UHGV virus genome: UHGV-1353844 | From: a virus | DNA length: 64,000 bases | Strand: one strand, 5' to 3' | Shown: positions 5,351-39,399 of the stretch, piece by piece | Numbering within the stretch: the first letter of the stretch is position 1 | How the letters are laid out: the number at the start of each line of letters is the position of its first letter | The notes under the pieces: model-generated | Told to the model about the DNA's origin: nothing | The model's input: only the letters and a program-made list of their open reading frames with translations | Databases searched by the model: none | Translations under genes and position numbers: made by a program

Positions 5351-5380
5351 GTCCACCTCCATATTCACGGAGCGTGGTGT

Positions 5381-5428
5381 AAAAAGAAAAAAAATAAAAG
5401 AGAAGGGAGAGAACCCGAAGGTTCTCTC
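5381..5428 (-). terminator. rho-independent terminator (minus strand) upstream of ATPase gene
   Basis: Stem GAGAGAACC / GGTTCTCTC with 4-nt loop, followed on minus strand by long T-rich run. Confidence 0.5.
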
Positions 5429-5434
5429 GCGGTA

Positions 5435-6043
5435 TTACGGCTGGTAGAGTTTGTAACCCATCTCCTGCCAGTTTTGGATATTTTTCGATTGCTCAACCCA
5501 AGCCTGGCCTGCATCTGACGCAACAACTTCCATCGTCAGTAAACAAATCAGATTGGTAACGGGAACACATTTCCCTGGTGTAACGTCATCCAAATACACC
5601 GGATACAGATATGGCGATTTGATGCTTTGGTACGGATAGGAATAATGTGTTCCTGCAACCCAACCTTCTTCCACTGGGCAGAGGTTAAAGGTACGCGTTT
5701 CTGGGATTTCCCCTTCAGAGATCCAATTTACAACGTCGGCCTTAATACGCCCGTTGTCGATGTAGTAGAACACAACACGTTGTGGGATACCTGCACCCCC
5801 GGTAGGGTCTATTGCTTCCAGCGCTTTAAACGGTGTGGTGTTCAACGTAGTACGGTTATCTAACGCGTACATTAGCTTTTCGTAAGCGGTTGGTGTTTTA
5901 CGTTCAAAATATGCTTTCAAACGCGGGTACGCTAAGAACCCTTCTACTTCTTCTTCCATCAAATCAATAAATAACGGAGAGTGTGGATTAGCTTCGTTTT
6001 GACGCATCGCTTCAATAAAACGAACCAAAGTAATTTCGTTCAT
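5435..6043 (-). CDS. hypothetical protein
   Basis: 202-aa ORF upstream of the ATPase, separated from it by a terminator-like hairpin; no metallophosphatase (Mre11/SbcD) motifs seen. Confidence 0.45.
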   Translation of the reverse strand: MNEITLVRFIEAMRQNEANPHSPLFIDLMEEEVEGFLAYPRLKAYFERKTPTAYEKLMYALDNRTTLNTTPFKALEAIDPTGGAGIPQRVVFYYIDNGRIKADVVNWISEGEIPETRTFNLCPVEEGWVAGTHYSYPYQSIKSPYLYPVYLDDVTPGKCVPVTNLICLLTMEVVASDAGQAWVEQSKNIQNWQEMGYKLYQP

Positions 6044-6060
6044 GTTTCAGTTTCCTTGGG

Positions 6061-6089
6061 CAAAAAAGAAGCCCCGTACACAGCGGGGC
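6061..6089 (-). terminator. rho-independent terminator (minus strand)
   Basis: GCCCCG-TACACAG-CGGGGC hairpin followed on minus strand by TTCTTTTTTG. Confidence 0.5.
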
Positions 6090-6097
6090 CGGGCTAA

Positions 6098-6574
6098 TCA
6101 CAGCCCTAAGTGCGTGAGTGATAAGATAGGCTGTGAGACACCCTGGATAGTAGCGTGGGAACGATACATTTCAGCGTTGGTTGAGAATACCTCGTTAGCG
6201 ATAATGCATTCACCCGTCTCTAAAGATAGGAGATAAATGTAATCGCTCCATACGCTTTGTACCAAGACCCACTCTAAGGATGGACCACAGTCTGATGTTG
6301 CTTGCAAATAGTGGAAATAAGGACGTATCGCATCCACCGCCGCATTAAAGCGACGATGATAAATTCGAGTTAAGTCAAACGACCAAATTGTTTCCAGATC
6401 AATAGGGCGTAAAGTACGCACGGTTTTGATAATAGTTTCCTGGTCGTTGTGTCGTGCTGCATCAGCAATCAATAACAGTTTCCAAGCCACCGTTAAGTTG
6501 TGGCGAATATACTCAGGCTTAGCCGTCAGTTCGTGATGGAATTGGGCCGCTTGATAAACATTAGATAAACGCAT
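6098..6574 (-). CDS. hypothetical protein
   Basis: 158-aa ORF flanked by hairpin terminators. Confidence 0.45.
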   Translation of the reverse strand: MRLSNVYQAAQFHHELTAKPEYIRHNLTVAWKLLLIADAARHNDQETIIKTVRTLRPIDLETIWSFDLTRIYHRRFNAAVDAIRPYFHYLQATSDCGPSLEWVLVQSVWSDYIYLLSLETGECIIANEVFSTNAEMYRSHATIQGVSQPILSLTHLGL

Positions 6575-6653: not shown

Positions 6654-7043
6654 TCAGTAATCTAATTCGATAGCGCCTAGCATCTCACCGCGTTCTTCGA
6701 TGACGATAAGATGACGGTCACGTGATTTGCTTTTCGCAAGCGTTAGTACAACTGTGGGGTCACACGTTTTGGTCGTTACAGGAAGCACCTCTTTTGCTAC
6801 AGCGTCAAGTACGAAATAATAACCCGCAGGGCAGGTTGTTCCGCCGTCTGCTTTTACGAGTATATAGCGTCCATCTGCGCCAACTTCTTGGCACTCGCCT
6901 GCATCGCCTTCGCAGACTTCAAAACCCGGTGGGTTGTAGTGATAGTCTGTGTTCGTTGCCGGGGTAAGTAATAAATCGTCGATGTGTGTAGAAGCCATAA
7001 CTCCGATTGAGAAAAACGCCAACAAAGCGCAGATAAGACGCAT
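6654..7043 (-). CDS. secreted small protein (signal peptide, Cys-containing)
   Basis: N-terminal signal peptide MRLICALLAFFSIGVMA; 6 Cys in mature part; member of 5-gene array of exported proteins. Confidence 0.5.
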   Translation of the reverse strand: MRLICALLAFFSIGVMASTHIDDLLLTPATNTDYHYNPPGFEVCEGDAGECQEVGADGRYILVKADGGTTCPAGYYFVLDAVAKEVLPVTTKTCDPTVVLTLAKSKSRDRHLIVIEERGEMLGAIELDY

Positions 7044-24322: not shown

Positions 24323-27300
24323 ATGCCGAGAGAAGACGCGGCGCAGTTTAACGGTACGCTAAGCACAGCGACGTACCCTAACCGATTTAACGTGGTCATT
24401 CCGCCTGAAGGACCTTTTTATCGTATCGGATTAAAACTCACAGTAGCCGACGATACCGCGCCTAACGGACGTCGTACTCTGATTGAGGGGTTGGACTACT
24501 ATTTAGGCTATTACTTTAAAGAACTCGCAGAAGCTGAACAAGATCAGATTTACGGCGGGTTTATGTTGCTTACTGCAACAGAAATCGAATATGAGATTTT
24601 AGGGGTAGCACGTCAATACCGTGTACCGCAATCTGAAATCGGGAAGTTCTTAGTTCGTACTGACCTGAAAGACCCACGTAACGTGGACTGGTCTGAACTA
24701 ATGGCGTATGCGCCGGTTATTCAGCCTATCGACCCGCCTGCTAACTTAGAAGAAGCGATTCTGAGGGATGAGGTTGTTAAGGCGTTAGAAGACATTCGCA
24801 AGAAAATCATCAAACGTTCTACGGAATTAGATGCTGCGTTCAGTGAAGTCACTAACTTGATTTACGAGAACGGTAAAAAGGTTTTCGACGAAGAGTTATA
24901 CCAGCATCACCGTAACCCTAACGCGCATCATTATACCACTGATGACATTGCTGCTCTCCCGGTATTAGGTCGTGCTGTTGACGCTACAAAAGCGTTTGGG
25001 TTGACGATTGACGAGTTGGCTACGCTGATGGGTTCAGCGGGTATTGAGCAATCGGACGTTGACCAGTTAATGGGTGAAGCCCTCGGCACCGTTTACGGTC
25101 GATGGGGTACCACGAACGGTAATGAATTAACGTTTAAAACGTCAGGTGGCCACATCATCAGTATTCGTGGTGATAAGTGGTTAATTACCTCGCCACAACC
25201 GTTGGTGATTAAAGCAGACCAGGACAACAACGAATCGGGTTTAGCGGTTGAATTCAGTGCGGGTCTGAATACGCTTTGGGTTCACTCGGGGTCGGAACAG
25301 GACGTATTAGCGCCAGTTTATAACTCCGTGTACCTGGTTACACCAGAAATGGTGAACATGTATCTGACGTCAGTAACGTTGCTTGAAGCAAACGCGTATT
25401 TCAAAGCGTCAGACACTGTAAAACCGTACGGTACCGCAAAACAGACTAACCCGGTTACGTTAAACGCGAATATTCCCACGGCGTCCGAATCAGTTTATGG
25501 GTTGTTCTCGATTACGAATATCTCTACGTCTGCGGCGTTAGGTACTGCTATCTCCCAGAAAGCTGTAACAGAATTAAAAGACCGCTTGGACTTGTACGTT
25601 GACGATGACTATACCGTTAACGGTAAAGGGTTTGTTAAAACAGGCGACAATATGGTGTTAACCTTAACGAAAACCGATTTCGGTATCGATAAGATGGATA
25701 ACACCATACCGAGTGATAAGCCTGTGACAAAAGCGTTAACGAACGTGTTGAAAAACAAGAGTTTGAAAACGCACACCCACACCACTGCTGACTTGGATAA
25801 CGTCCCGATTGGTAGTGCAACGGTTGACGGTATCTTACAGCTCTGGGATGCAATTGACACCACTAACGATAAAGCTGTCACGTCGCGTCAAGGCTGGTTG
25901 TTCGCAAAAGAGATTAAGAAGGTCTCTGATAAACTGAATACCATCTTACCGGCGTGGACGGTAGGTGGAGCGAAATTCGGTAACAAGAACTTCTTACCTA
26001 TCCCAGCGTTAGGTAACTACGCAGGCTATACCAAAAACCAGTCCTACCAGAAAGGGGTTGTTGGGTATCAGCAGGGTAAGGTTTATTCGCTCCGTAACGG
26101 TTCTAACGGCGTGCCGGGTACGGAAGCTATTTATTACGGCTATGCTGACATTGACACGTCAAACGCGTTTGTAAATCCGCAGCAGACCTCAGTGAAATAT
26201 CACCCTGCCGGGATGAGTAAATATCCTGGGGTGACCCTAATAGCGATATTGATCGGTGGCCAGGAAGCGATTATTTGCCTGGGTTCTGACAATAACCGTT
26301 ATTTGGTGCTGTTTAATGGCTCGATGGACCACACTAAGCACACGGTGGTATGTCGCGTTACGATGCCCGTGTACCGTAACGGCAACCCCAGTGGTACTGT
26401 GGAACAAACCTGGAACCCGTGGCCGGAAGCTGACGATGTCGTGTTGGTTGAGGACTACGTTTATCTTCTCCGTTCAACGGTAAATAACTCCGCTTACGCC
26501 GTAGCAGCTTGGCGTCTACGTAAGGCCGATTTGTCTACTAACACTACGTTAGAATTTGAACGTGTAACTCTAACCGGCGAGATGGGACAATTCGGAGATA
26601 ACCTCTGCTTGCGTATTGGTCAGAAAACCGAAGAGTCGCAAACGGGTCAATTCTTTACATATCTCACACCGGAGGGTCGTGCTAAATGGACGATCGGGCG
26701 TAACTTTGTTCACGGTCCAGAATGTAACCACGCGTGTGCTGTGCGCGATAGCGTGATTCGTGTGAACCATATGCCTACCGTGTGGTTTGCAGCGGCCGAC
26801 GGTACGACGATTAATTTCCTTCAATGGGCAACAAGTTTTACAATCGATACGTTGACGGGCAAGGTTACGTTAGAAGGCCGCGAACGCTTCCCCATCAAGG
26901 CTGATGCTACTACTACACTCTCGTTCGCAGATGGTTCAACTGTAGGAACCAATCGTAAGTGGGGTGGTGGCCAGGCAAACAACCGTTGTTTCGCGACGTA
27001 TGCTAAACCCAACGGTACAGGAATGATGCTTTCCTGTTGGCAAATTGCCGATGCGGACCAAATGCCTAATGTTTCTATTAAGAGTACACAAGGCAGAGAG
27101 CTTTTCGATTATCTGCGTTACGATAACCCAAACAACACCTCGGGCGAAGGAACGTTTACCTGGGATAAAGGCCGTGGCTCCATTTACACCATCGGTTTGT
27201 CTTATCCAGTAGGGATTGGTGGTTCGAATAAGGTCTGGTTATCGAACCCTCGTAACCGTTACACGATCGAAGTGGAAGTTGATCCGAACAAACCTTACGA

Positions 27301-29509
27301 TGTTTCTGGGTATAGTGGGTACGGTCCGAACAACAACCGTCGTGAAGTCGATCCAACGCTTTACGAGCAGCTTAGCTGTATGGCTGCGTGCATGATCCCT
27401 GAGGAGCGTCATGGACAGTTGAACGGCTGGTATTTGACCAAAGCAGAAACGTTCCCGTATCGTAACATCTACGGTAACTTCGCATTGTCTTCCGAACGCT
27501 TAACGCTAGAAGAAGCCGATCGGCAGAAAATGATTCGGATGATCGTTGACGGTGCGCCATCTGGTCAAGCAAATGGTTACGCGAACGAACGTATTAGTGC
27601 TGCACATCAAACCGGTAATGCATTGTTTGCTCTTTGGATGTTGGGTATCAACACCGTGTGCGAATTTGACTTGTTGCAAGTTTCGTGCATGAAAACCTCA
27701 AGTAACGGACGTCGAATTCTTGACATCTATTACTTCATGGTGAGCCCATCTAAAGAGAACGGCTACTTACGTTTCAACTCAGCCACCTTTAAGTTGGTGG
27801 ACTGGTTCTTAGACCTCGATTATGGTTTAAGTTATCAGTCACTAAATGGGGGAGCGGGAGGTAAAACGAGGCGCGTGGGGCAGCCTATTTTTGCATCTGC
27901 GGATGGAACTAACTTCGGTATCTGGTTACCTTATACGTTAACTACCCGAAATATCGGGGACTTAAACGCCCTGGGCTACGCTGCTAAATATACCTTCGAC
28001 CCTGGTTCAGGTTGGACACGCGTTGCAGGTAAATCACAGTTACGGCAGATGGCCCCTGAACATAGACCAGAATCTGGGTGCTATATGGGTGCCGGTGATT
28101 GGGACAAGATGGCGTTGATTTACTCTAAAGCTGACCGTGTTTTCTGTTCAGGTAACGCGTATACAGCCGCAGAGTTCGTTAACGACACGACGTTCTCAAC
28201 CGGAGGTCAGGCGGTTATTATTGCCGGTGTGGAAACAGCGGAAGGTTGGATTCTGTATTTGACAGAAGAAGTCAAATTAGATTTCGGTAGCAGCAGTTAC
28301 ACACTCCCAACGTGGTCTGTGGATTTAAGCAGTGAGTTCCCATCCAATCACGCTAACCAGACGTTCTACGTGCACGCTGAGGTGTCGGGTTCTACCGCGC
28401 AATACCGCATCGGTTTGGAGCAGTTAGCCGATACCTCAACAAGACTGTTCGTTGGGACAGTAACCACCGATTCCAGCCGTATTACTGGTATCAGTATCGA
28501 CAAAGTAAAACGTTTGGGTCGTGTGAAAGAACTGGAAGACCACGCAGCAATTATCGACCAACACGATGTAGCAGCAGCGTTTGACAGAAAGACGGGTCCT
28601 CTATTAACACTGGTTAACAAGCCCGTTAAAGCACCTACGGCGTCTGCGTCGAAAGGTGAAGGGTATGTTGACGGTCAGAAATGGGGTTCACTGTCCGGCA
28701 TTACGACGCGTCCTAAGTTACCAATTCAGGAAACGTATTCGGGTTATAAGAGCGTGGCCAGGGTAGCGTATGAGAACTGCGCTGACCAATTCTGGCAGAA
28801 AGCGGTAGCTGCTAACATTGCGACAGCCACTGCTTCTGAGAACATGCAGGCAGCGTCTGCGAACATGAAATGGATTGGTGCGTATACGAAACCGACTACC
28901 GGAACGAATGCTTACTTAGCATTGAGTTTGCGTGTTCAGGTGCCAGGTAATCCAGGAACGGCGAATCGTGCTCTGAAACTACGACTTGCTGCACCAACCG
29001 GTATTGTTGAAGCTCGGTATGCATTAAACCAGGCCGGTGGTACGATGACTGAACAAACGGTAACGTTAACCGCCAACCAGTACCTGGAAAAAGAGCACAG
29101 TGGGTTTAAACCTGCCGAGGAGGTTCGTGTTCATGTCACGTTCGTTATTCCGAAGAACGAGTATGAAAGTTATCGTACGAAGTTTGGGGCGGTACAGTTG
29201 ATTGACGTTGAATCGAACACCATCGTCAAGCAGGCTGATATCGACACACCGTTCTTTGTCTTTACGGACACTGAACTGGCTGCGCAATCTGGTTTGGTGT
29301 ATAAAGCGGTCAAGGGTCAGTTTGACAATCTCCCGAGTGAACCTACGCTCATTGTCCGAGATGGTCAGACCGGAACTAACCCACCGGTGAAATCGTCTTA
29401 CGCTAACGGTACGCTAACCGTTTACGTAGCGACCGCGTACGATGCCGTGAATCCGGCGGAAACTCGCGATATCGACAAACTCCAGTTCAATCTTATGTTT
29501 ACATCTTAA
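24323..29509 (+). CDS. tail fibre protein (1728 aa) with shared N-terminal anchor module
   Basis: AGGAG SD; N-terminal EGPFYRIGL...GLDYYL module; fibre motifs VYGLFSITNISTSAALGTAIS and DKMDNTIPSDKPVTKAL. Confidence 0.65.
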   Translation: MPREDAAQFNGTLSTATYPNRFNVVIPPEGPFYRIGLKLTVADDTAPNGRRTLIEGLDYYLGYYFKELAEAEQDQIYGGFMLLTATEIEYEILGVARQYRVPQSEIGKFLVRTDLKDPRNVDWSELMAYAPVIQPIDPPANLEEAILRDEVVKALEDIRKKIIKRSTELDAAFSEVTNLIYENGKKVFDEELYQHHRNPNAHHYTTDDIAALPVLGRAVDATKAFGLTIDELATLMGSAGIEQSDVDQLMGEALGTVYGRWGTTNGNELTFKTSGGHIISIRGDKWLITSPQPLVIKADQDNNESGLAVEFSAGLNTLWVHSGSEQDVLAPVYNSVYLVTPEMVNMYLTSVTLLEANAYFKASDTVKPYGTAKQTNPVTLNANIPTASESVYGLFSITNISTSAALGTAISQKAVTELKDRLDLYVDDDYTVNGKGFVKTGDNMVLTLTKTDFGIDKMDNTIPSDKPVTKALTNVLKNKSLKTHTHTTADLDNVPIGSATVDGILQLWDAIDTTNDKAVTSRQGWLFAKEIKKVSDKLNTILPAWTVGGAKFGNKNFLPIPALGNYAGYTKNQSYQKGVVGYQQGKVYSLRNGSNGVPGTEAIYYGYADIDTSNAFVNPQQTSVKYHPAGMSKYPGVTLIAILIGGQEAIICLGSDNNRYLVLFNGSMDHTKHTVVCRVTMPVYRNGNPSGTVEQTWNPWPEADDVVLVEDYVYLLRSTVNNSAYAVAAWRLRKADLSTNTTLEFERVTLTGEMGQFGDNLCLRIGQKTEESQTGQFFTYLTPEGRAKWTIGRNFVHGPECNHACAVRDSVIRVNHMPTVWFAAADGTTINFLQWATSFTIDTLTGKVTLEGRERFPIKADATTTLSFADGSTVGTNRKWGGGQANNRCFATYAKPNGTGMMLSCWQIADADQMPNVSIKSTQGRELFDYLRYDNPNNTSGEGTFTWDKGRGSIYTIGLSYPVGIGGSNKVWLSNPRNRYTIEVEVDPNKPYDVSGYSGYGPNNNRREVDPTLYEQLSCMAACMIPEERHGQLNGWYLTKAETFPYRNIYGNFALSSERLTLEEADRQKMIRMIVDGAPSGQANGYANERISAAHQTGNALFALWMLGINTVCEFDLLQVSCMKTSSNGRRILDIYYFMVSPSKENGYLRFNSATFKLVDWFLDLDYGLSYQSLNGGAGGKTRRVGQPIFASADGTNFGIWLPYTLTTRNIGDLNALGYAAKYTFDPGSGWTRVAGKSQLRQMAPEHRPESGCYMGAGDWDKMALIYSKADRVFCSGNAYTAAEFVNDTTFSTGGQAVIIAGVETAEGWILYLTEEVKLDFGSSSYTLPTWSVDLSSEFPSNHANQTFYVHAEVSGSTAQYRIGLEQLADTSTRLFVGTVTTDSSRITGISIDKVKRLGRVKELEDHAAIIDQHDVAAAFDRKTGPLLTLVNKPVKAPTASASKGEGYVDGQKWGSLSGITTRPKLPIQETYSGYKSVARVAYENCADQFWQKAVAANIATATASENMQAASANMKWIGAYTKPTTGTNAYLALSLRVQVPGNPGTANRALKLRLAAPTGIVEARYALNQAGGTMTEQTVTLTANQYLEKEHSGFKPAEEVRVHVTFVIPKNEYESYRTKFGAVQLIDVESNTIVKQADIDTPFFVFTDTELAAQSGLVYKAVKGQFDNLPSEPTLIVRDGQTGTNPPVKSSYANGTLTVYVATAYDAVNPAETRDIDKLQFNLMFTS

Positions 29510-29549
29510 TGACTCGAGACAAGGACGTCTCGAATAAAGGAGAGTGGCC

Positions 29550-30749
29550 ATGGCCTCCATTGTTTATCAATATCCTTTAGATTTAACGGGCTCGCTAACG
29601 TCTAACGCTGTAGAGCGTCAGATTACGTTAGGTACAGGTAAAGTAAACCGTGCTTTTGCTTTTCCTGACGGCCCGTTCTTTGCGGACACGTTCCGTTTAC
29701 GTGTTGCTAACCGACCGGATGCAACCTACGAACGTGGTACCGATTATGAGTTGATTTTTGCACACCCGACTTATGAAAAGCTGACTAAAAACCGCGAGAT
29801 TGTTATGGCGGTGGTGGTCACTAACACAGCGATTCCAACAGATATTACGGTATCTGCGCAGGTCGTTGGTGGTCCACAGTCTGCGAACATTGTGGCTATC
29901 GAACAGGCGATTGCTGAATTAAACCTCGATAACCGTACGATTGCGTTTAAAGACCTGCGTAACGTACCGGATACATTCCCATCTGCACCGACGTATAAAG
30001 ACGTGGGTGACATCTACGGTTTTGAATATATCATTACCGTATTGGCGGGTATTAAAGATGCGATCAGTTCCGGTGACGCGGTACAGTTAGAGAACATTAA
30101 AGCGATTTTAGAAAGCCTGAAAAATGACTTCTTAGACGCTTTAAATGCACACATCAACGCAACCGGTAACGTTCACCATCTTGATATTCATCAGGTTAAC
30201 GGGTTAACAGAAACTGAAATCCGTGCGCTTATTCGTGACGTCCAGTCTGCCATCGACGCAACGATTACGGAAATCAATGCACTGAAGAAAGCGGACGAAG
30301 CTTTAGGTAAGCGTATTGACGCTGTTGTCAACTCTCTGGAAGCGTGGAACGACCAACTTAACGTGGTTGCTCAAAACTACCAGAAAATGGCCTTAGCGTT
30401 AGCGAACCTGAACTCGTTAGTGTTACAACTGCAAAAGAGCATCAACGATTTAAACACAAAACTGAATCAGGTTATTCAGCGTGTTGCCGCGTTAGAGCAA
30501 CAGGGTCAAGAAACCGATCAGAAAATCGATCAGGTACAACAGAACCTGGATGCGCTTAAACAGCAAGTTAACAATAACACGAACGCAATCAGTCAAGCGA
30601 ACCAGAACCTACAAAACCACATCGCGGCAGATAACCCGCACACCGGTTATCTCCACAAGAGATACGGTGGTGTGGTTCAGGCCCCAGTACACGTTAACGC
30701 TAACCTGACGTCTCGTGATGACGTACAGGCGGAAGCGGGTACGAAATAA
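29550..30749 (+). CDS. fibre-associated protein (399 aa) with shared N-terminal module and C-terminal coiled coil
   Basis: ATG at 29550 with AAAGGAG SD (track starts at GTG 29544); N-terminal DGPFFADTFRL...GTDYEL; C-terminal half Q/N/L-rich heptads. Confidence 0.55.
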   Translation: MASIVYQYPLDLTGSLTSNAVERQITLGTGKVNRAFAFPDGPFFADTFRLRVANRPDATYERGTDYELIFAHPTYEKLTKNREIVMAVVVTNTAIPTDITVSAQVVGGPQSANIVAIEQAIAELNLDNRTIAFKDLRNVPDTFPSAPTYKDVGDIYGFEYIITVLAGIKDAISSGDAVQLENIKAILESLKNDFLDALNAHINATGNVHHLDIHQVNGLTETEIRALIRDVQSAIDATITEINALKKADEALGKRIDAVVNSLEAWNDQLNVVAQNYQKMALALANLNSLVLQLQKSINDLNTKLNQVIQRVAALEQQGQETDQKIDQVQQNLDALKQQVNNNTNAISQANQNLQNHIAADNPHTGYLHKRYGGVVQAPVHVNANLTSRDDVQAEAGTK

Positions 30750-30758
30750 TTTAATTAC

Positions 30759-30803
30759 AGGAGGAACTATGCTTATGGCTGGTTCCTCCTCTATTTTAAT
30801 TTT
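30759..30803 (+). terminator. terminator-like hairpin separating fibre module from Cys-repeat/radical-SAM operon
   Basis: AGGAGGAAC…GTTCCTCCT stem (13-nt loop) followed by CTATTTTAATTTT. Confidence 0.4.
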
Positions 30804-30814
30804 AAGGAAGCGTA

Positions 30815-31207
30815 ATGGCGATTAGTGTTAAACAAATGCGCGATCGGTTAACCACAGTAGAAAATACAGTCGCTACCGGCCCTCGTGTCAATGCGCAGGT
30901 CGCATCGAAAGCGCATAACGCGGCAGATTCGTTTTCCGGTTGGACGCCTTCGCGTTTAGACTGCGGAGGAGCGTGTTCGTGGACATGTTCTAACGGATGT
31001 ACTCACGGTTGCTCGAGCTGTTCAGGAAACTGTTCAGCGTCGTGCGTGGGTAGCTGCTCTTCGTCCTGTGGGGGCAACTGTTCGGGATGCTCTGGCTGCT
31101 CGGGGGCTTGTTCTAGCAGTTGTACAAGTACCTGTACTGGAAGTTGTACTGGGCGTTGTTCGCATAACTGTTCGGGTGCTTGCTCCGGCGGTTGCTCTGG
31201 TCGATAG
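30815..31207 (+). CDS. Cys-repeat protein 1 (130 aa): N-terminal leader-like region + (Cys-x3)n core; candidate radical-SAM substrate
   Basis: AAGGAAG SD; C-terminal ~80 aa has 20 Cys at almost strict 4-residue periodicity separated by S/G/T/A/N (…CSWTCSNGCTHGCSSCSGNCSASC…). Confidence 0.55.
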   Translation: MAISVKQMRDRLTTVENTVATGPRVNAQVASKAHNAADSFSGWTPSRLDCGGACSWTCSNGCTHGCSSCSGNCSASCVGSCSSSCGGNCSGCSGCSGACSSSCTSTCTGSCTGRCSHNCSGACSGGCSGR

Positions 31208-31216
31208 GGGGAAGAA

Positions 31217-31612
31217 ATGGCGGTTGGATTAGCTGAATTAGTAAGACGTCTTAATAACGTCGATAGTATCGCGCTGAAAAACACCACAGGTGTACAGAAC
31301 TACATCCGCAATAAGGCCACGAATAACGCGGACCTGTTCGGTGGTCGGAATCGTGCGCATTATGACTGTGCGGGCACGTGTTCCTTTACCTGCTCGAGTT
31401 GCTCTGGTGGCTGTACAGGGAACGCGTCTGGTGGTTGCGGTTCTTCATGCTCTGCAAACTGTACGTCAGGGTGTTCAAGTAGCTGTTCAGGGTGTTCGGG
31501 GAGTTGTTCGGGTGGGTGCGCTAATGCGTGCTCGGGCACTTGTACGGGCGGCTGTACAGCATCGTGCTCCAGTAGCTGTACCGGTGGCTGCTCGTCGTGC
31601 ACAGGACGATAG
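31217..31612 (+). CDS. Cys-repeat protein 2 (131 aa), paralog of 30815..31207
   Basis: Divergent N-terminal ~50 aa then (Cys-x3)n core (…CSFTCSSCSGGC…CSGSCSGGCANACSGTC…). Confidence 0.55.
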   Translation: MAVGLAELVRRLNNVDSIALKNTTGVQNYIRNKATNNADLFGGRNRAHYDCAGTCSFTCSSCSGGCTGNASGGCGSSCSANCTSGCSSSCSGCSGSCSGGCANACSGTCTGGCTASCSSSCTGGCSSCTGR

Positions 31613-31622
31613 GAGGTGAGAA

Positions 31623-31832
31623 GTGATTTCCCTCAAAAATATTCGAGACAGAATCGGTCAGGTTGAAGGCTACATTAAAACCACAGATGCGAATAACTAT
31701 ATTGCTAATCAGGGTACGGTGTCCTCAACGAATAACTTGGCAGGATTACCGTTAACTCACTATAACTGTAATGGGAGTTGTAGCTGGGCGTGCAGTGGTA
31801 GCTGTAGTAAAGGTGCAGGGGGAGGCAGGTAA
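31623..31832 (+). CDS. Cys-repeat protein 3 (69 aa), short paralog
   Basis: GTG start with AGGAGG SD; N-terminal region similar to the other two, short core CNGSCSWACSGSCS. Confidence 0.45.
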   Translation: MISLKNIRDRIGQVEGYIKTTDANNYIANQGTVSSTNNLAGLPLTHYNCNGSCSWACSGSCSKGAGGGR

Positions 31833-31953: not shown

Positions 31954-32841
31954 ATGAAGAACGATCTACATCTTGCATATACGACAACGTTCAATCATCC
32001 ACTTCACATCTCTTCCCCTGATTCGGTACGTCACCATCTTGCTGATGATGTACGCTTAATTGCCATGATTCCTGGGGAATGGCCGAAAGTGCGTGGTCGT
32101 CATATCGCTAATCGTGACAACTTTACGGTTGAGAATACGTTCAAAATTCGTGATATGGTTGGCGAAAGCATCGTTGTCTTTACCGGTGACAACTCACAAC
32201 GCGGTAAACTTATCGACGGTAAATATTTCTTTAGCGACGGTGTGTTAAATAATACAGTTGACTTAGAACTTATGTTCACACCGTTTGAAGAACTCGATGC
32301 TAAACCAATGGCCCGTCGTTGGTGGAGTCCAGACTACCTGGGTGCGTTCCCTAACTATTACGCGTTGGTTGAAAAAGATACCAAAGAGTATTTTGATACG
32401 GAACCGTATATCGATATTGAAGGCTATCAAGAACTCGGAATTACGCATCTGGCCGACTTAATGGCGTACAGCTATAAGTTCGAATGGATTCGTGAACGTT
32501 CGGTTTGGAAAGCCATCACTGACGAACACGTGATTACGAAACGCATTCGTAAACCGTGGATGCAGCATATGGTTCAGGTACGTTTTGGTCAGAGCCCAGC
32601 TACCGAAGCGGACATTTCCAAACTCGTCAGCTTCTTGCTGTCGAAAGTTAAACTGACTGACGAAGAAGCCGAAGCAGTTAAGCCGATGCTTGACCGTGTT
32701 GTGACCTTAGAAGACCTCAAACGGATGAATAGCCGCTACAACGAACTTAACCGTTTACTGGAAGCGTATAATTCGCCACTGATTTTAAAACCCGGTGTTA
32801 ACTTCGACGAAGATCCTTTATTCGCCATCGATTATATTTAA
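31954..32841 (+). CDS. hypothetical protein in radical-SAM operon
   Basis: 295 aa; GGAG SD; between Cys-repeat genes and radical SAM genes. Confidence 0.5.
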   Translation: MKNDLHLAYTTTFNHPLHISSPDSVRHHLADDVRLIAMIPGEWPKVRGRHIANRDNFTVENTFKIRDMVGESIVVFTGDNSQRGKLIDGKYFFSDGVLNNTVDLELMFTPFEELDAKPMARRWWSPDYLGAFPNYYALVEKDTKEYFDTEPYIDIEGYQELGITHLADLMAYSYKFEWIRERSVWKAITDEHVITKRIRKPWMQHMVQVRFGQSPATEADISKLVSFLLSKVKLTDEEAEAVKPMLDRVVTLEDLKRMNSRYNELNRLLEAYNSPLILKPGVNFDEDPLFAIDYI

Positions 32842-32861: not shown

Positions 32862-33779
32862 ATGATAGACAATGTGGAATCCAGGATCTCGACGAAGTTG
32901 TACGATAAACCCACTATATTGTCCGTAGTTACGACGTCTAAGTGTAACCTAGACTGTAGTTTCTGCGGTGGAGCCTACTACATGAATCGTGAAGATTCGT
33001 CTCGTGCTTTTCAACGCGAACGTATCCTGGAATTACTACAAGAGAATCCAGCTATTAAGGAAATACATTGGACGGGTGGTGAACCGCTACTCGTCCAACG
33101 TAAGATTGAGGATTTCGTTAACGAACTGAAAGTGTCTCATCCGCACCTTGAGCATCACTTGTATACCAACGGCTTAAAACTGCGTAAATCGCATCTTACG
33201 CTGCTAAAAGACTTTGAGCATGTGTTTGTATCAATTGATGGCTACAAACGTTCTGAGCGCCCTTTTATGCGCTTTATTGAAGAGGATAGCCACGAAGCAC
33301 TGGAAGCGTTATACGAACTCGATAACTTCCAAACCTGGGCTGTGATTACGCGTGACCAGTTAGCCGATAAGCGCTGGTATGAAGATATTGTGGATTTACA
33401 TCGTGCGATGTACCACTATCGTCCCCGTGCGTTTTCTCTGATGTTTGATGCCCAAATGCCAAAACCGTTGTCTCCCGATCACATCATGAACTTCGTTTAT
33501 GGTTATTTAAAGATTCAGGAGAATATGGAACGGCTGAACGTCCAAACCGGAGAATCGTGCGGCGTGTCTGTCAGCAAGATTTTCGAAAACGAGTGTAATG
33601 TCTGTAGCGAAGAGTTGTATTTGAACGCAGATGGAACAGAACATCAGCTTCAGAATGCACCGGCTATCTTAAACGGTGGGTGCAATCAGCTTGCTTGCTC
33701 TATCGGGGTAGGTGCTTACGAGTACATTAAACGCGTGATTTATGCAGAGCGTAAAAGGATAAGCAAAGATGAGCAATAA
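32862..33779 (+). CDS. radical SAM enzyme
   Basis: CxxxCxxC cluster (SKCNLDCSFCGG) at residues ~27-34; GGE motif (WTGGEPLL); additional C-terminal Cys pairs (CNVCSEE…CNQLAC). Confidence 0.7.
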   Translation: MIDNVESRISTKLYDKPTILSVVTTSKCNLDCSFCGGAYYMNREDSSRAFQRERILELLQENPAIKEIHWTGGEPLLVQRKIEDFVNELKVSHPHLEHHLYTNGLKLRKSHLTLLKDFEHVFVSIDGYKRSERPFMRFIEEDSHEALEALYELDNFQTWAVITRDQLADKRWYEDIVDLHRAMYHYRPRAFSLMFDAQMPKPLSPDHIMNFVYGYLKIQENMERLNVQTGESCGVSVSKIFENECNVCSEELYLNADGTEHQLQNAPAILNGGCNQLACSIGVGAYEYIKRVIYAERKRISKDEQ

Positions 33780-35103
33780 TGAAGCACCACGTTCACAACG
33801 TACTTACCAGGTGGTAACGAACCTGTCTTGTAACTTAGACTGTGAGTATTGTTACGAACGTAAGTATCCGCGTAATAACAAAGCGGCGGATATCGTGGAT
33901 TTCTTACACGCCTGTTTTGAGCGTGATAAAGATATTCCGAACATCGACGTCATTATTGATATCATCGGCGGCGAACCTTTTATGCAACCGAAACTGCTGT
34001 TAGCGGCGTTTGAAACCGCAGAACAGTTGTGTAAGGAGCATAATCGACCGTATATGTTCAGTATCTCCACGAACGGGACGTTGTTAGACCGTCCGTTAAA
34101 CCGTGAGATCGTCGAGCGTTGGAAAGACAAACTCTCCATCGGTGTGTCTATCGACGGGCTGCCAGAAGTCCATGACCGTTATCGTATCTTTACCACGACG
34201 CGTCAGGGTTCTTACGAAGCCGCTGTTCGTGGCTATAACTACTTAAAAGAAGTGGGTATTGCTGAACTGGGTATCAAGGCAACCTTTACAACCGAAACCC
34301 TCCCGCATTACGCGGCGAGTATGAAGTCGTTAATCGATATTGCGGGTGGTGGTACGATTTCGGGTAACGTGACGTACGAAGATATCCTTCCACGGAGCAT
34401 GGCAACGGATATTGCGTTGCAGATGATCGAGGTGATGGATTATTGGATTGAGAAAGGGCTGCACACCAATCCACGTAACGTGTTGTCCCACATCATTCCT
34501 GAAGGTCTGGATTTCCGTCAGATTTGGGACCCAGATTGGCGTGATAAACTGCTGTACGACGACACGCACCGTTATAACCCTGAACGTTTACGTCCGTTCT
34601 GTGGGACGTTGACGTTTATGACTTGTTTAGGTTTTGACCGTAAGGTGTATGGTTGTAACCGATTCATGTCAACGGTAACGTCACGCTCTGCGGTGTTTGA
34701 GTTAGTCGGTCGTGAGTTTGTTAGCTTAGACGGCGGGAAACTGCTGGAAGAGATTCAGACGCAATACACCAACTATCCTGAAACGTGCTTAGGTTGTCCG
34801 ATGAAACACGGTTGTGGGAGCTGTGCAGCTGCTTCCTACGAAAACGGTGAAGGGACACTGGAAGACCGTAAGGCGTACCACGCTGAACGACGTCAATGTG
34901 GTTGGACGACCGCAAAACTGATGGCGGCAGAATACTGGCGTCAACGTACAGGCACCGTCCACGCATCGTCACTGCACGATTCGTCTGTTTGTTACTGTCC
35001 GAAATGTACGCGTGAGCGTGAGCAAGCTAAACGTGCGTTAAATGCACAACCTACTGAGGCAAATAATGAAATCAATTCTGATCCACAATTTTACGAAGCG
35101 TAA
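33769..35103 (+). CDS. radical SAM/SPASM-domain enzyme (peptide-maturase-like)
   Basis: CNLDCEYC near N-terminus, GGEP motif, C-terminal Cys-rich SPASM-like cluster (CLGCPMKHGCGSC…); 11-nt overlap with the preceding radical SAM gene. Confidence 0.7.
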   Translation: MSNNEAPRSQRTYQVVTNLSCNLDCEYCYERKYPRNNKAADIVDFLHACFERDKDIPNIDVIIDIIGGEPFMQPKLLLAAFETAEQLCKEHNRPYMFSISTNGTLLDRPLNREIVERWKDKLSIGVSIDGLPEVHDRYRIFTTTRQGSYEAAVRGYNYLKEVGIAELGIKATFTTETLPHYAASMKSLIDIAGGGTISGNVTYEDILPRSMATDIALQMIEVMDYWIEKGLHTNPRNVLSHIIPEGLDFRQIWDPDWRDKLLYDDTHRYNPERLRPFCGTLTFMTCLGFDRKVYGCNRFMSTVTSRSAVFELVGREFVSLDGGKLLEEIQTQYTNYPETCLGCPMKHGCGSCAAASYENGEGTLEDRKAYHAERRQCGWTTAKLMAAEYWRQRTGTVHASSLHDSSVCYCPKCTREREQAKRALNAQPTEANNEINSDPQFYEA

Positions 35104-35632
35104 ACTCCACCTGGTTGAGCGTTTTCTGCGCAAACACAAACTCTATAACGTTCACGCCATTATCCCTGGTGAAGACTTTACAGATGAGATTAAACCTCTG
35201 TTGATTAAGTACGGGCTAAACGTGATGATTCCCGTTTACTGTACAGAGACAGGCCATGAGTCCGTTGTGGAAATCGAAAAACGTAATCCGGGTTTCGAAC
35301 AACGCGTACTGGATTACCCACGCCACAAGATCGAATTGCTTCGTTATTCTGCGGAGAATCCGAGTAGCGCATCTATTGCTGCATTAGCGGTGTCTTTCCC
35401 GCGTCTGCCAATCCGTTGCTTGCGTTCTACGTCTATCTACGATGCTTATTACGTAGAGCATCAGACGTTCAACGAAAATGTGTTACCACAGTTAACGGAT
35501 GAAGAACGCGACATTGCAAACGTGGTGTGGTCAAACGATCTCTCTGAAACCTTCCAGTTGGTTGATTTTGGCTTGCTGCAAGAATTAGGTATGGTTGGAG
35601 AAGAAGAATGTCTGCTTCTAACAAAAGCTTAA
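35066..35632 (+). CDS. hypothetical protein in radical-SAM operon
   Basis: Start moved to ATG at 35066 (GAGG SD) rather than 35042. Confidence 0.4.
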   Translation: MKSILIHNFTKRKLHLVERFLRKHKLYNVHAIIPGEDFTDEIKPLLIKYGLNVMIPVYCTETGHESVVEIEKRNPGFEQRVLDYPRHKIELLRYSAENPSSASIAALAVSFPRLPIRCLRSTSIYDAYYVEHQTFNENVLPQLTDEERDIANVVWSNDLSETFQLVDFGLLQELGMVGEEECLLLTKA

Positions 35633-36282
35633 CGAAAGAAGAGATTCGGGCGCGTTATTTCGCGCACGATCTGCCAATTGACCGCCACGGTAACTACATG
35701 GAACGTGTAGGTAACGAAGACCGTGGTCGTACGGGGTTCTGTGCATTACTGCACTATAAGTTGATTGAAGGGATGAGTGATGAAGAAGCTTTAGCTCAGA
35801 TGCAAACTTACGAAATGTCTCCTATTGAGGCGAAGTTTACACTGAACAAAGCAAAAGAATTCATTACTGACGTTCTGGAGATTAACCTGGACGAGATTCG
35901 TTCGAATATGCGCTCGACGTCTCGCTATATCTATTTAGATATCCAGAAAATCATGTTGGAAATTGAACACCGATACGAAGACCAGCGTCACGGTTATATC
36001 GAAGTTGACGGCCATCATTTCCAAGCGGATGAAACCTCTCGTCAGATGCTGGGTCAATATATCCAGTCTGAAACTGCACCGGATTATTGGCTGGACACGT
36101 CGAATACACGTATAGAACCGTTTACGCTGGAGCAATGTAAAGCGTTAATGGCGGCTATTGTGAAACGTGACCAACAGCTACACAACGCGATGTCTGCCCA
36201 GAAAAGTGAAATTCGTCAGTACGCCGAACAGCGTGACTACGACACGATCCGTGCACTTGCGCTGGAAATGGGATTAGAATAA
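35608..36282 (+). CDS. hypothetical protein, last gene of radical-SAM operon
   Basis: 224 aa; GGAG SD; followed by bidirectional terminator. Confidence 0.5.
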   Translation: MSASNKSLTKEEIRARYFAHDLPIDRHGNYMERVGNEDRGRTGFCALLHYKLIEGMSDEEALAQMQTYEMSPIEAKFTLNKAKEFITDVLEINLDEIRSNMRSTSRYIYLDIQKIMLEIEHRYEDQRHGYIEVDGHHFQADETSRQMLGQYIQSETAPDYWLDTSNTRIEPFTLEQCKALMAAIVKRDQQLHNAMSAQKSEIRQYAEQRDYDTIRALALEMGLE

Positions 36283-36286
36283 AAAA

Positions 36287-36329
36287 TACCTACCTCCGTA
36301 AAGGAGGTAGGTAAACTTATTATTTTTTG
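36287..36329. terminator. bidirectional rho-independent terminator
   Basis: TACCTACCTCC-GTAAA-GGAGGTAGGTA flanked by A-run upstream and T-run downstream; between convergent genes. Confidence 0.65.
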
Positions 36330-38225: not shown

Positions 38226-38741
38226 TTAGATTTTAACTAAGGCGCTCCAATCGATAGGGCTTTGTTTCACGACTTTCACAGTACCGCGATTCGGTGACCA
38301 GAACGTGATATTCGGTTGGTTACGAACGTCGATATGTAACCAACTGATGTCGCATTCGATAAAGTGAATGAACGGAAATTCGTCAGGATTAGCGGCGATA
38401 TAGTCGTGGACTTGTTTTACCGTTGAGTCTAACAGTGTTGCGTCAAATGCATTACCGAACTTGTGCTGACTCCCTGAATCAGAGTAGAGTTGTAACGCAC
38501 GTTGTTTATAGTTACCACCCTTAGGCTTTTCTTGGTTGATGAAAAAGTCTAAGGTTCTTAGGCCACGCTGTTGCGCAGCAGACGAGTTAATCACCATTCT
38601 GCCGAAACGGTTACGAATCTGTTGTAGCGAAATCATTAACAACGGGTTCATAAACCGAATTGCAGAATCACCGTATTTGGCGATGTACGATTGTGGTACT
38701 AACTCTTTGAGTTTAAAGTTACTCGGATTTGGATGAAACAT
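38226..38741 (-). CDS. peptidase M15-family peptidoglycan hydrolase (T5-endolysin-like)
   Basis: Zn-binding H-x6-D motif (SQHKFGNAFDA) and downstream His (WLHIDV), as in M15 phage endopeptidases. Confidence 0.55.
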   Translation of the reverse strand: MFHPNPSNFKLKELVPQSYIAKYGDSAIRFMNPLLMISLQQIRNRFGRMVINSSAAQQRGLRTLDFFINQEKPKGGNYKQRALQLYSDSGSQHKFGNAFDATLLDSTVKQVHDYIAANPDEFPFIHFIECDISWLHIDVRNQPNITFWSPNRGTVKVVKQSPIDWSALVKI

Positions 38742-39384
38742 CTTCCCTCCCAGACAGAAAAGCCCGTTTGATGTTCAAGTATTTGACATTAACGGGACAA
38801 CCTGTGGTGATATCAACACGTTCGTGGTCAGGAATAGCAGGCTCCTTAAACTCACGAACGAACAAATAGTTTCGATTGTAATCTAACGTACGGTAATCGT
38901 TAGTGGTATAAGACGGCTTCGCGTTAGGGTCTACGTAAGCATCCCAACCGAACCCCGCCACGGCTTTATAAAATGTTTGGCAGATATACGGCGAGATTTC
39001 CAACGACTGCATAATACGCAGGAATGTTAAGTCAGAGAACTCTTTATCGATAATACGCGAAACGTTACCACCCGGTGTCATGGGATAGCTACGCTCCGTG
39101 TTACATTTTTGATAGAGTAAGTCGTGAATGCAGGCCGCAGGTGCCCACGGTCCGTCAGGATGGAAAATTCCCTGTAAGTGTTCAGGAATTGACGCTAAAT
39201 CGGTAACGAACCCTTTCGGAGCGGTTAACCACAGTTGCGTGTCAGGTAATACACCGGTTAAATAAACCGCACGGTCTAAGTGTACGTGGTCGTGATAAAT
39301 CTCACGTAACGTAAACGGATAATGGTAATCCTCCGTTAATACAAACCACTTATTATCTAAACGTTTATATTGAAGCTTTTCCAT
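38719..39384 (-). CDS. DUF1353 domain protein
   Basis: Segment GFVTDLASIPEHLQGIF…AACIHDLLYQ resembles DUF1353; ATG at 39384 with AAGGAAAGG SD (track begins at GTG 39393). Confidence 0.45.
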   Translation of the reverse strand: MEKLQYKRLDNKWFVLTEDYHYPFTLREIYHDHVHLDRAVYLTGVLPDTQLWLTAPKGFVTDLASIPEHLQGIFHPDGPWAPAACIHDLLYQKCNTERSYPMTPGGNVSRIIDKEFSDLTFLRIMQSLEISPYICQTFYKAVAGFGWDAYVDPNAKPSYTTNDYRTLDYNRNYLFVREFKEPAIPDHERVDITTGCPVNVKYLNIKRAFLSGREDVSSKSE

Positions 39385-39399
39385 TACCCACACCTTTCC

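Follow-up and report, generated by a model that had tools for sequence, protein, structure and literature searches.

Three tandem genes, here called A, B and C, lie at positions 30815-31832 of the 64,000-nucleotide stretch of virus genome UHGV-1353844 that was analysed (the window), and encode proteins in which a cysteine recurs at nearly every fourth residue. They are best described as a divergent variant of the CXXX-repeat system that is already defined in databases, a variant that pairs two radical S-adenosylmethionine (rSAM) enzymes and is embedded in phage tail-fibre modules; it is this tail-fibre context, together with the fusion of such repeats to fibres, that appears to be unreported. 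Judged by sequence, the three proteins are very probably substrates of the adjacent rSAM enzymes, and on balance we lean towards the reading that they are fibre-associated structural modules, whose cysteine ladder is cross-linked by the larger enzyme (rSAM-2), thioethers being the likeliest bond, with help from the smaller one (rSAM-1) and from an accessory protein.

The three cysteine-ladder genes

Gene A (30815-31207, 130 aa), its paralogue B (31217-31612, 131 aa) and the short paralogue C (31623-31832, 69 aa, with a GTG start) are all on the + strand and each is preceded by a Shine-Dalgarno-like sequence. Protein A contains 21 cysteines between residues 50 and 127, where 17 of the 20 spacings are C-x3 and the remaining 3 are C-x2, B contains 20 with C-x3 at 15 of the 19 spacings and a single C-x7 gap, and C has just 4, every spacing being C-x3, within the motif NCNGSCSWACSGSC. 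Cysteine at every fourth residue in tandem paralogues, with the 131-aa protein repeating the pattern and the third a short version, had been claimed in an earlier note made from the letters of this DNA, and the claim is borne out; the figure of 20 cysteines given there for the 130-aa protein is one too low, whilst the periodic array itself stands. The N-terminal regions are indeed free of cysteine, for 49 (A), 50 (B) and 48 (C) residues. Protein A is built from an N-terminal helix and a fibre-type junction (residues 1-49), followed by the cysteine units and a C-terminal end CSGR (CTGR in B), and C shares the N-terminal region and junction of A and B.

The repeat unit of A and B can be written C-[S/T]-[G/S]-x, with Ser or Thr at position +1 in 26 of the 32 four-residue units of the two proteins, and the core is 27% cysteine with small residues flanking. 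The C-x3 periodicity of A and B is far beyond chance. When each Cys-rich core was shuffled 100,000 times with its composition preserved, A gave on average 2.2 adjacent C-x3 spacings (maximum 11) in place of the 17 observed, and B gave 2.1 (maximum 9) in place of the 15 observed. The cysteine autocorrelation of both proteins has its peaks at lags of 4, 8 and 12 residues and falls to zero at lags of 1 and 2, meaning that neither protein has a CC or CxC motif. Within the C-x7-C gap of B (residues 66-74, CTGNASGGC) a conserved Ala holds a cysteine position, therefore A and B can both be regarded as having 21 "slots"; this slot is occupied by Cys in Wellington-like phages and in the phage of locus L054. 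Modelling of A with AlphaFold2 from a 6-sequence alignment gave a predicted local distance difference test (pLDDT) score of 38.8, with helices at residues 5-21 and 27-33 only, and Pfam scans (with a set that lacks PF27846) found no match for A, B, C or the accessory protein.

The same three open reading frames (ORFs) are found in the phages SPN3US, STsAS, Huxley and phiEaH2 and at ~20 further loci, which excludes the worry, raised in the earlier note, that a frameshift in the reading might have produced the pattern. In these related jumbo phages the cysteine count of A is always 21, that of B is 20, or 21-23 in some lineages, and that of C is 4. All cysteines of A (21) and B (20) are kept in five pairwise comparisons, across three genera of SPN3US-like jumbo phages, and in each comparison 7-15 of the cysteine codons, about half of them, have switched synonymously between TGT and TGC. 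The ratio of non-synonymous to synonymous substitution (dN/dS) is ~0.1-0.2 for the cysteine-ladder genes where dS is unsaturated. Furthermore, A, B and C all match PHROG 6085, a family of phage proteins of unknown function (E 1.6e-36, 1.6e-42 and 1.6e-25 respectively), with C covering the first half of the profile (positions 2-66). A, B and C are real genes under selection. One might otherwise have supposed that there are no genes here and that G+C-rich low-complexity DNA is simply open in several frames by chance, as the region is open in other frames and antisense, and annotators picked those in SPN3US (gp166) and Huxley (gp176 and gp177); across genera, however, only the + frame retains start, stop, ribosome-binding site, all cysteines and the N-terminal domain, and about half of the cysteine codons have changed synonymously under a low dN/dS, with profile matches between 1e-25 and 1e-42. 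That supposition is already refuted by the pattern of conservation, and its probability is close to nil. In three loci from Wellington-like Erwinia phages (L019-L021) A has 21 cysteines and a longer B has 23, and a scan for cysteine runs found no short paralogue C at these loci.

The annotations of the reference phages miss these genes. In SPN3US the true ORFs lie at 5097-5489, 5500-5904 and 5920-6126 of locus L001, where the annotation has an out-of-frame ORF, gp166 (ACQ60_gp100; L001 5573-5908), in their place; Huxley has been given two antisense ORFs, gp177 and gp176 (L004 7159-7482 and 7603-7896), and STsAS has nothing annotated there (L002 4964-5985). Proteomic searches that were built on these wrong annotations could not detect the products of the cysteine-ladder genes. 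The SPN3US virion proteome lists gp167-173 and none of gp163-166 (PMC5694885), and the absence of the rSAM enzymes and of gp165 from that list is expected for enzymes and therefore uninformative. The Cys-free N-terminus of SPN3US A contains the tryptic peptides VQIVEANMATGPR and IDAQVASK. A search for homologues of protein A retrieved just 8 proteins, since gene callers probably skip these ORFs.

Radical-SAM enzymes and the CXXX-repeat family

Downstream of the trio, on the same strand, lie the gene for the 295-aa accessory protein (31954-32841; phrog_8030), a conserved partner in the cassette, and those for rSAM-1 (32862-33779, 305 aa; PF04055 8e-15, phrog_1802) and rSAM-2 (33769-35103, 444 aa), the latter of the radical-SAM/SPASM peptide-maturase type. 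The gene for rSAM-2 is 1.9 kb downstream of the cysteine-ladder genes within the same block, and its best NCBIfam match is TIGR04115, "radical SAM peptide maturase, CXXX-repeat target family", at 124.8 bits against a curated cut-off of 350, followed by PapB (NF047865) at 110.8 bits. On the substrate side, A and B score 19.5 and 17.6 bits with TIGR04114 ("tSAM_targ_Cxxx"), for which the cut-off is 20, and the NCBIfam scan gave no match to it for C. As these scores are beneath the curated cut-offs, neither the proteins nor the enzyme can be counted as formal members of TIGR04114 or TIGR04115. Among solved structures the sole sequence match of rSAM-2 is CteB (PDB 5WGG), at E 1.3e-12 over the radical-SAM core. 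The suggestion of the earlier note that the arrays are rSAM substrates therefore gains support at the level of the family, from the pairing of TIGR04114 with TIGR04115, from the relationship to CteB and from the recurrence of a nearby rSAM gene. Its remark that an array of ~20 repeats is far longer than any known precursor does not hold, because this kind of CXXX repeat is already modelled (TIGR04114, TIGR04115, TIGR04117 and Pfam PF27846) and viral members have up to 77 cysteines. The TIGR04114/TIGR04115 family is defined bioinformatically only, and literature searches found nothing on the chemistry or role of the CXXX-repeat/TIGR04115 family.

In rSAM-2, C21, C25 and C28 (CxxxCxxC) and seven SPASM cysteines (C278, C296, C340, C343, C349, C352 and C377) are invariant in 10 of 10 homologues, and as the rSAM motif begins at residue 21 the enzyme has no N-terminal RRE domain. 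An extra C-terminal C-x-C-x2-C cluster is present at residues 408-413 of the jumbo-phage rSAM-2 (SVCYCPKC), and is kept only in the jumbo-phage group, being absent from prophage and TIGR04115-type homologues. In rSAM-1, 6 of 6 homologues keep all of C28/C32/C35 and C245/C248/C274, the C-terminal three looking twitch-like; its best NCBIfam matches are weak and include HxsC. The accessory protein has a confident structure model that matched no known fold, and it belongs to a tiny family with 42 representatives among 1.84 billion proteins.

Several known systems resemble parts of this arrangement. As in TIGR04114/PF27846 with TIGR04115 (and also TIGR04117), the proteins have long stretches of small residues in which cysteine recurs every four positions, and are encoded beside a SPASM rSAM without an N-terminal RRE; unlike the loci of TIGR04115 proper, the window lineage adds a second, smaller rSAM and an accessory protein of 250-295 aa (phrog_8030), and unlike the wider TIGR04114 system its targets are three small paralogues with fixed cysteine numbers. 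The PapB family is the best match for two enzymes discussed below, those of a Deferribacter prophage and of locus L023. In freyrasin, the peptide associated with PapB, a C-x3-D unit is repeated six times and a Cys-to-Asp thioether closes every unit; the window repeats have the same four-residue register, but they are without Asp or Glu, residue i+4 is another cysteine and there are ~20 units as opposed to 6. In addition, a leader/RRE logic is not evident and rSAM-2 scores far under the cut-off of 340. CteB, of the SCIFF system (PDB 5WGG and 5WHY; TIGR03974), is likewise a SPASM enzyme and forms a Cys thioether, however its radical-SAM core starts at residue 106 and that of rSAM-2 at residue 20, such that rSAM-2 is without the ~85-residue N-terminal extension of CteB, the RRE domain of that enzyme; SCIFF peptides are ~45 aa long with six cysteines that are not periodic.

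A tandem short-period repeat substrate beside a large SPASM enzyme and a smaller rSAM is also the arrangement of the His-Xaa-Ser system (HxsB, HxsC and HxsD; TIGR03978, TIGR03977). The matches (74 bits for rSAM-2 with HxsB, 47-49 bits for rSAM-1 and its prophage homologues with HxsC) are far under the cut-offs and the repeat of that system is HxS, whereas that of the window is Cxxx; we know of no association between the His-Xaa-Ser system and phages. Sactipeptides (subtilosin/AlbA, thuricin) share cysteine donors spaced by three residues and a SPASM radical-SAM maturase, and one SPFM2 annotation names the homologue "albA". They have 3-4 cysteines that face acceptor residues across a hairpin, and come with a leader, a protease and an exporter; no hairpin acceptors, leader, protease or exporter are seen with the cysteine-ladder genes.

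CXXX modules in tail-fibre genes

More distant homologues of rSAM-2 lead to two prophages, in Campylobacter pinnipediorum and Deferribacter abyssi, where the cysteine run is part of a tail fibre. The P2-like prophage of C. pinnipediorum has the gene order Baseplate_J, Tail_P2_I, a 384-aa tail fibre, a 250-aa protein, two rSAMs and DUF1353, and the C-terminus of its fibre (PF12571, E 1.8e-40) is a CXXX run. In D. abyssi a 302-aa protein with HxH...DxRYYTE repeats is encoded downstream of a GpJ-like tail-tip protein, and both the repeats and the location are the grounds for taking it as a tail fibre, its sole Pfam match, to PF12789 (phage tail repeat), being weak. This protein ends in "...KATNADQLGGQAGSYYRCSDCSWTCSSSC..." / "...KATNADQLGGQAGSYYRCSDCSWTCSSSCTGSC...", with 29 cysteines; the genes for a 250-aa protein and for two rSAMs come next. 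The junction that precedes its repeats is the same as that of B in the window (KATNNADLFGGRNRAHYDCAGTCSFTCSSC), a weaker form of which is present in A and C, and can be written K-A-T-N-x-A-D-x-F/L-x-G ... Y-x-C-x-G-x-C-S-W/F-x-C-S; over this junction and the repeats the Deferribacter fibre matches phrog_6085 at 4e-12. The 250-aa proteins of both prophages are homologous to the 295-aa accessory protein of the window (BLASTP 6e-12 and 4e-10; phrog_8030 1.9e-11). The fusions and the homology of the accessory proteins together define a conserved variant cassette, made up of a fibre (or a fragment of one) ending in CXXX, an accessory protein and two rSAMs; in jumbo phages the CXXX module has become three small proteins that stand alone. 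A DUF1353 protein (phrog_1158, labelled "tail assembly chaperone") is encoded near the cassette in jumbo phages, at 38719-39393 (- strand) in the window, and directly after the two rSAMs in the Campylobacter prophage (L150 11068-11433); possibly this is another conserved partner of the cassette.

In the window the trio is placed directly downstream of two tail proteins, and a like position is found in L076, L131, L150, L151, L007 and L008. The first is a 1728-aa homologue of SPN3US gp168 (24323-29509, +), which is syntenic with SPN3US_0168 and starts the fibre block; SPN3US gp168 is a tail protein resembling phiKZ gp131, located on fibres or the baseplate periphery (PMC5105663), and was detected in SPN3US virions by published proteomics. 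The second is a 401-aa coiled-coil virion structural protein (29544-30749, +), homologous to SPN3US gp167, which matches phrog_2163 "virion structural protein" at E 7e-103 and gives coiled-coil-type matches; proteomics identified gp167 of SPN3US as an abundant virion protein that does not belong to the head (PMC5694885, Supplementary Table 1).

It is at this point that a classical origin among peptides made by the ribosome and modified after translation (RiPPs) has to be weighed, in which A, B and C would be leader-plus-core precursors of a diffusible thioether-bridged peptide, a bacteriocin or a signal, made by an auxiliary cassette and released by lysis. Tandem precursor paralogues are typical of RiPP clusters, a Cys-free N-terminal region does stand ahead of a Cys-rich C-terminal one, PapB, CteB and TIGR04115 are relatives of the SPASM maturase, and AlphaFold2 finds no intrinsic fold. 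The supposed leader, however, is homologous to an internal segment of tail fibres, the one before the CXXX run ("KATNxAD-LGG...Y-C-G-CSW-CS"), and the module is fused to fibre C-termini, which tells against the leader-like character that the earlier note had ascribed to the N-termini. Furthermore, no match to protease, transporter, immunity-gene or RRE families was obtained for the genes of the block between 29544 and 36282 with Pfam, NCBIfam and PHROG profile scans, the position in the tail module is conserved in unrelated phages, some members have ~120-155 further residues after the repeats, and the cysteine count is strictly kept at 21. We consider a diffusible RiPP unlikely.

Viral contigs were scanned for nine TGY codons spaced by 12 nt (TGY-N9 x9), the matches being filtered by unit diversity and composition to drop off-frame tandem repeats, and the figures that follow cover the matches listed. 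Outside the SPN3US group ~19 genuine CXXX proteins were found, 15 of which have an rSAM-2 homologue within ~1-3 kb, a strong co-occurrence; those without a nearby rSAM include short loci and genes at the edges of loci. The enzymes of L071, L131, L074, L138, L077 and L145 pass the TIGR04115 cut-off, with 383-654 bits, and over the wider family the runs extend from 11 to 77 cysteines. On these contigs the conserved core is the CXXX protein and one rSAM only, and no homologues of the 401-aa, 295-aa, 196-aa or DUF4376 proteins of the window block were found on them. Most of the matches to the scan were false, being 12-nt tandem repeats that read "CGAP/CGAL" off-frame (L030-L048 and other 55-60-kb contigs), and these repeats were rejected as unrelated to the CXXX family.

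The two annotated loci of full TIGR04115 members, L131 and L076, are tail modules. In L131 the order is a virion structural protein, a tail fibre, a CXXX protein of 408 aa with 77 cysteines, an rSAM and, further on, an endolysin, and in L076 it is a baseplate wedge, a baseplate protein, a tail fibre, a CXXX protein, an rSAM and a tail-fibre-like protein. Sheath_initiator and Phage_Wedge1 precede the CXXX gene in L007 and L008, in L155 the CXXX gene comes two genes (423 and 178 aa) after a GDPD-domain protein, and in L006 the cassette precedes an amidase. Beyond the run, L136 and L078 have a further C-terminal stretch of ~120-155 residues, as would be expected of a shaft or spacer and not of a RiPP core. 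In L007 (9447-10558) and L008 (5952-7063) two overlapping frames, with 21 and 42 cysteines, together make up the CXXX gene, which could be an assembly error in a repeat or a true frameshift; its homologue in L076 is a single ORF of 367 aa. Two loci (L023 4075-4543 and L024 6471-6939) have two small proteins in which every third residue is a cysteine (C-x2, with Q/N/D/F as fillers). L023 belongs to a temperate phage with an integrase, where these genes are directly upstream of a PapB-like rSAM (209 bits) and the cassette sits between a minor-tail-like protein and an amidase, thus the periodicity is another one and the genomic logic is the same as that of the CXXX cassette.

The recurrence of the pair also bears on the idea that these are fibre proteins held only by disulfides formed after lysis, with the rSAMs acting on some other fibre protein, a nucleotide or a cofactor. 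The location of the genes in the tail module would suit this idea, as would the score of rSAM-2 under its family cut-off, but CXXX proteins are found together with rSAM-2-type enzymes in many phages that are unrelated and differ in their other genes, which points to a direct relation between the two and is hard to explain in any other way; we regard disulfides alone as very unlikely.

In L152-L154 a CXXX-repeat protein of 177 aa (P0007) that has a Tat/Sec-like signal peptide is encoded beside an rSAM of 413 aa; these are short metagenomic contigs on which no phage genes are obvious, and one neighbour is Sua5/YciO/YrdC. These sequences suggest that a cellular, exported version of the CXXX system exists. 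A Tat-like signal of this kind is typical of exported proteins that are loaded with a cofactor, and might be held to favour a ladder that binds Zn, Fe, Cu or Fe-S and has no C-S links at all, serving as a metal-thiolate rod in the fibre or as a reservoir of clusters or sulfur for the rSAMs. A core with so much cysteine among small residues would suit metal, the missing fold is compatible with metal-dependent folding, and phage fibres do use metal sites, such as the His-coordinated Fe of T4 gp37. The hallmark of metallothioneins, CC and CxC motifs, is however absent, the genes are strictly coupled to a clade of SPASM peptide maturases and not to metal-handling genes, and the curators of TIGR04114 model the family as an rSAM target. 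The absence of those motifs and the strict linkage to rSAM genes weaken the metallothionein-like alternative of the earlier note, and metal binding of this sort seems to us improbable.

Gene block, proposed role and wider meaning

The window derives from a SPN3US-like (Seoulvirus-related) Salmonella jumbo phage with ~70-75% nucleotide identity to SPN3US, and one stretch of it is 100% identical to an IMG/VR contig. An NCBI protein from "Salmonella enterica serovar Chester", on contigs of at most 226 kb, is 100% identical to rSAM-2 of the window, and contigs of 226-245 kb in Salmonella, E. coli and "[Curtobacterium] plantarum" assemblies carry this rSAM-2 or close relatives of it; phages of this group have evidently been sequenced along with bacterial isolates.

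The Cys-rich trio sits in a single co-directional block. Between the fibre gene and gene A there is a stable hairpin followed by a U-rich tract (30759-30790, +; -19.8 kcal/mol, z -3.3), and hairpins are found at the same place in SPN3US (L001 ~5039-5075, -23.7) and Huxley (L004 ~7006-7037, -19.0), with stem sequences that differ among the three phages and z values from -3.3 to -4.5. This hairpin may separate the fibre gene from the cysteine-ladder and maturase genes as a terminator, as an attenuator or by stabilising the end of the mRNA. After rSAM-2 come a 196-aa protein (35042-35632, +; phrog_7988), which has no Pfam or NCBIfam match and is an uncertain member of the cassette, and a 224-aa DUF4376 protein (35608-36282, +; PF14301 6e-11, phrog_8169), the final gene of the block, which has weaker matches to tail and tail-fibre PHROGs. 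The block ends at a strong, bidirectional, terminator-like hairpin (36287-36313) with an 11-bp stem (-20.4 kcal/mol, z -6.9). Neighbouring genes share 11 nt in the case of rSAM-1 and rSAM-2 (33769-33779), 62 nt in that of rSAM-2 and the 196-aa ORF (35042-35103), and 25 nt in that of the latter and DUF4376 (35608-35632), which suggests translational coupling through the maturation genes. A scan for sigma-70 promoters and terminators did no better than shuffled sequence, as expected for a phiKZ-like phage.

The genes and their conservation, the periodicity, the likeness of substrate and enzyme to known families, the recurring synteny and the fusion of the module to tail fibres are shown by the sequences. 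From this evidence we infer an enzyme-substrate relation, a thioether chemistry and incorporation into the virion, and the scheme that we lean towards would run as follows. A, B and C would be produced from late genes as a short N-terminal helix, a tail-fibre junction motif and a C-[S/T]-[G/S]-x run with 21 cysteine slots in each of A and B, against 4 in C. The co-transcribed SPASM-type rSAM-2 would modify the ladder after translation, assisted in some manner by rSAM-1 and the 295-aa accessory protein, and by analogy with the nearest relatives of the enzyme each cysteine thiol would form a thioether with a carbon atom of some nearby residue, within one chain or between chains. Covalent staples would in this way turn a featureless tail rich in Gly, Ser and Thr into a rod that is insensitive to redox conditions and is produced inside the reducing cytoplasm, which does not allow disulfides to form, and the rod would join or attach to the baseplate-fibre apparatus of gp167-like and gp168-like proteins. 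The inter-chain thioether ladder that the earlier note offered as one option is close to this scheme.

A number of observations weigh against such a scheme. The score of rSAM-2 is far under the curated TIGR04115 cut-off, and A and B miss that of TIGR04114, if marginally. Asp and Glu, which serve PapB and QhpD as acceptors, do not occur in the repeats of A and B, and AlphaFold2 gives no fold for A. The search database of the SPN3US proteome lacked these ORFs, such that A, B and C could not have been placed in virions by it, and the proposal gives rSAM-1 and the accessory protein no defined part. Literature searches gave no support for radical-SAM cross-linking in phage tail fibres or in jumbo phages, and the signal peptide of P0007 and its non-phage-like locus indicate that a fibre role is not universal.

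Strengthening an extracellular part of a phage by bonds that need no disulfide formation has, as a concept, precedents in the isopeptide "chainmail" of the HK97 capsid and in the His-metal sites of the T4 fibres gp37 and gp12, although the chemistry is wholly different and neither uses dedicated radical-SAM enzymes. More tentatively, it is possible that many tailed phages, among them jumbo myoviruses, P2-like and siphovirus-like prophages and phages of Gram-positives, use radical-SAM/SPASM enzymes, which are so far known as makers of small RiPP natural products, to install covalent Cys-derived cross-links in a "cysteine ladder" of their fibres inside the reducing cytoplasm, and that TIGR04114/TIGR04115 is largely a system for maturing structural proteins of the virion. 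Were this so, each cysteine might be both donor and acceptor, in an i/i+4 register that would give a continuous thioether zipper.

If the proposal is true, the chemistry of peptide natural products would also be a means of building viruses, one which solves the problem of reinforcing extracellular fibres covalently within a reducing cell, and the recurrent, unexplained "radical SAM" genes of phage genomes would have a function. It would also mean that virion-associated proteins have been missed in model giant phages such as SPN3US through annotation of the wrong frame or strand, and that the uncharacterised CXXX system of NCBIfam becomes tractable in Salmonella or E. coli. Even if the reading is wrong, A, B and C remain a well-conserved phage member of an unstudied family of rSAM targets. 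Fibres that are built in this way could affect both host range and the stability of the particle, and would thus be relevant to phage therapy and engineering.

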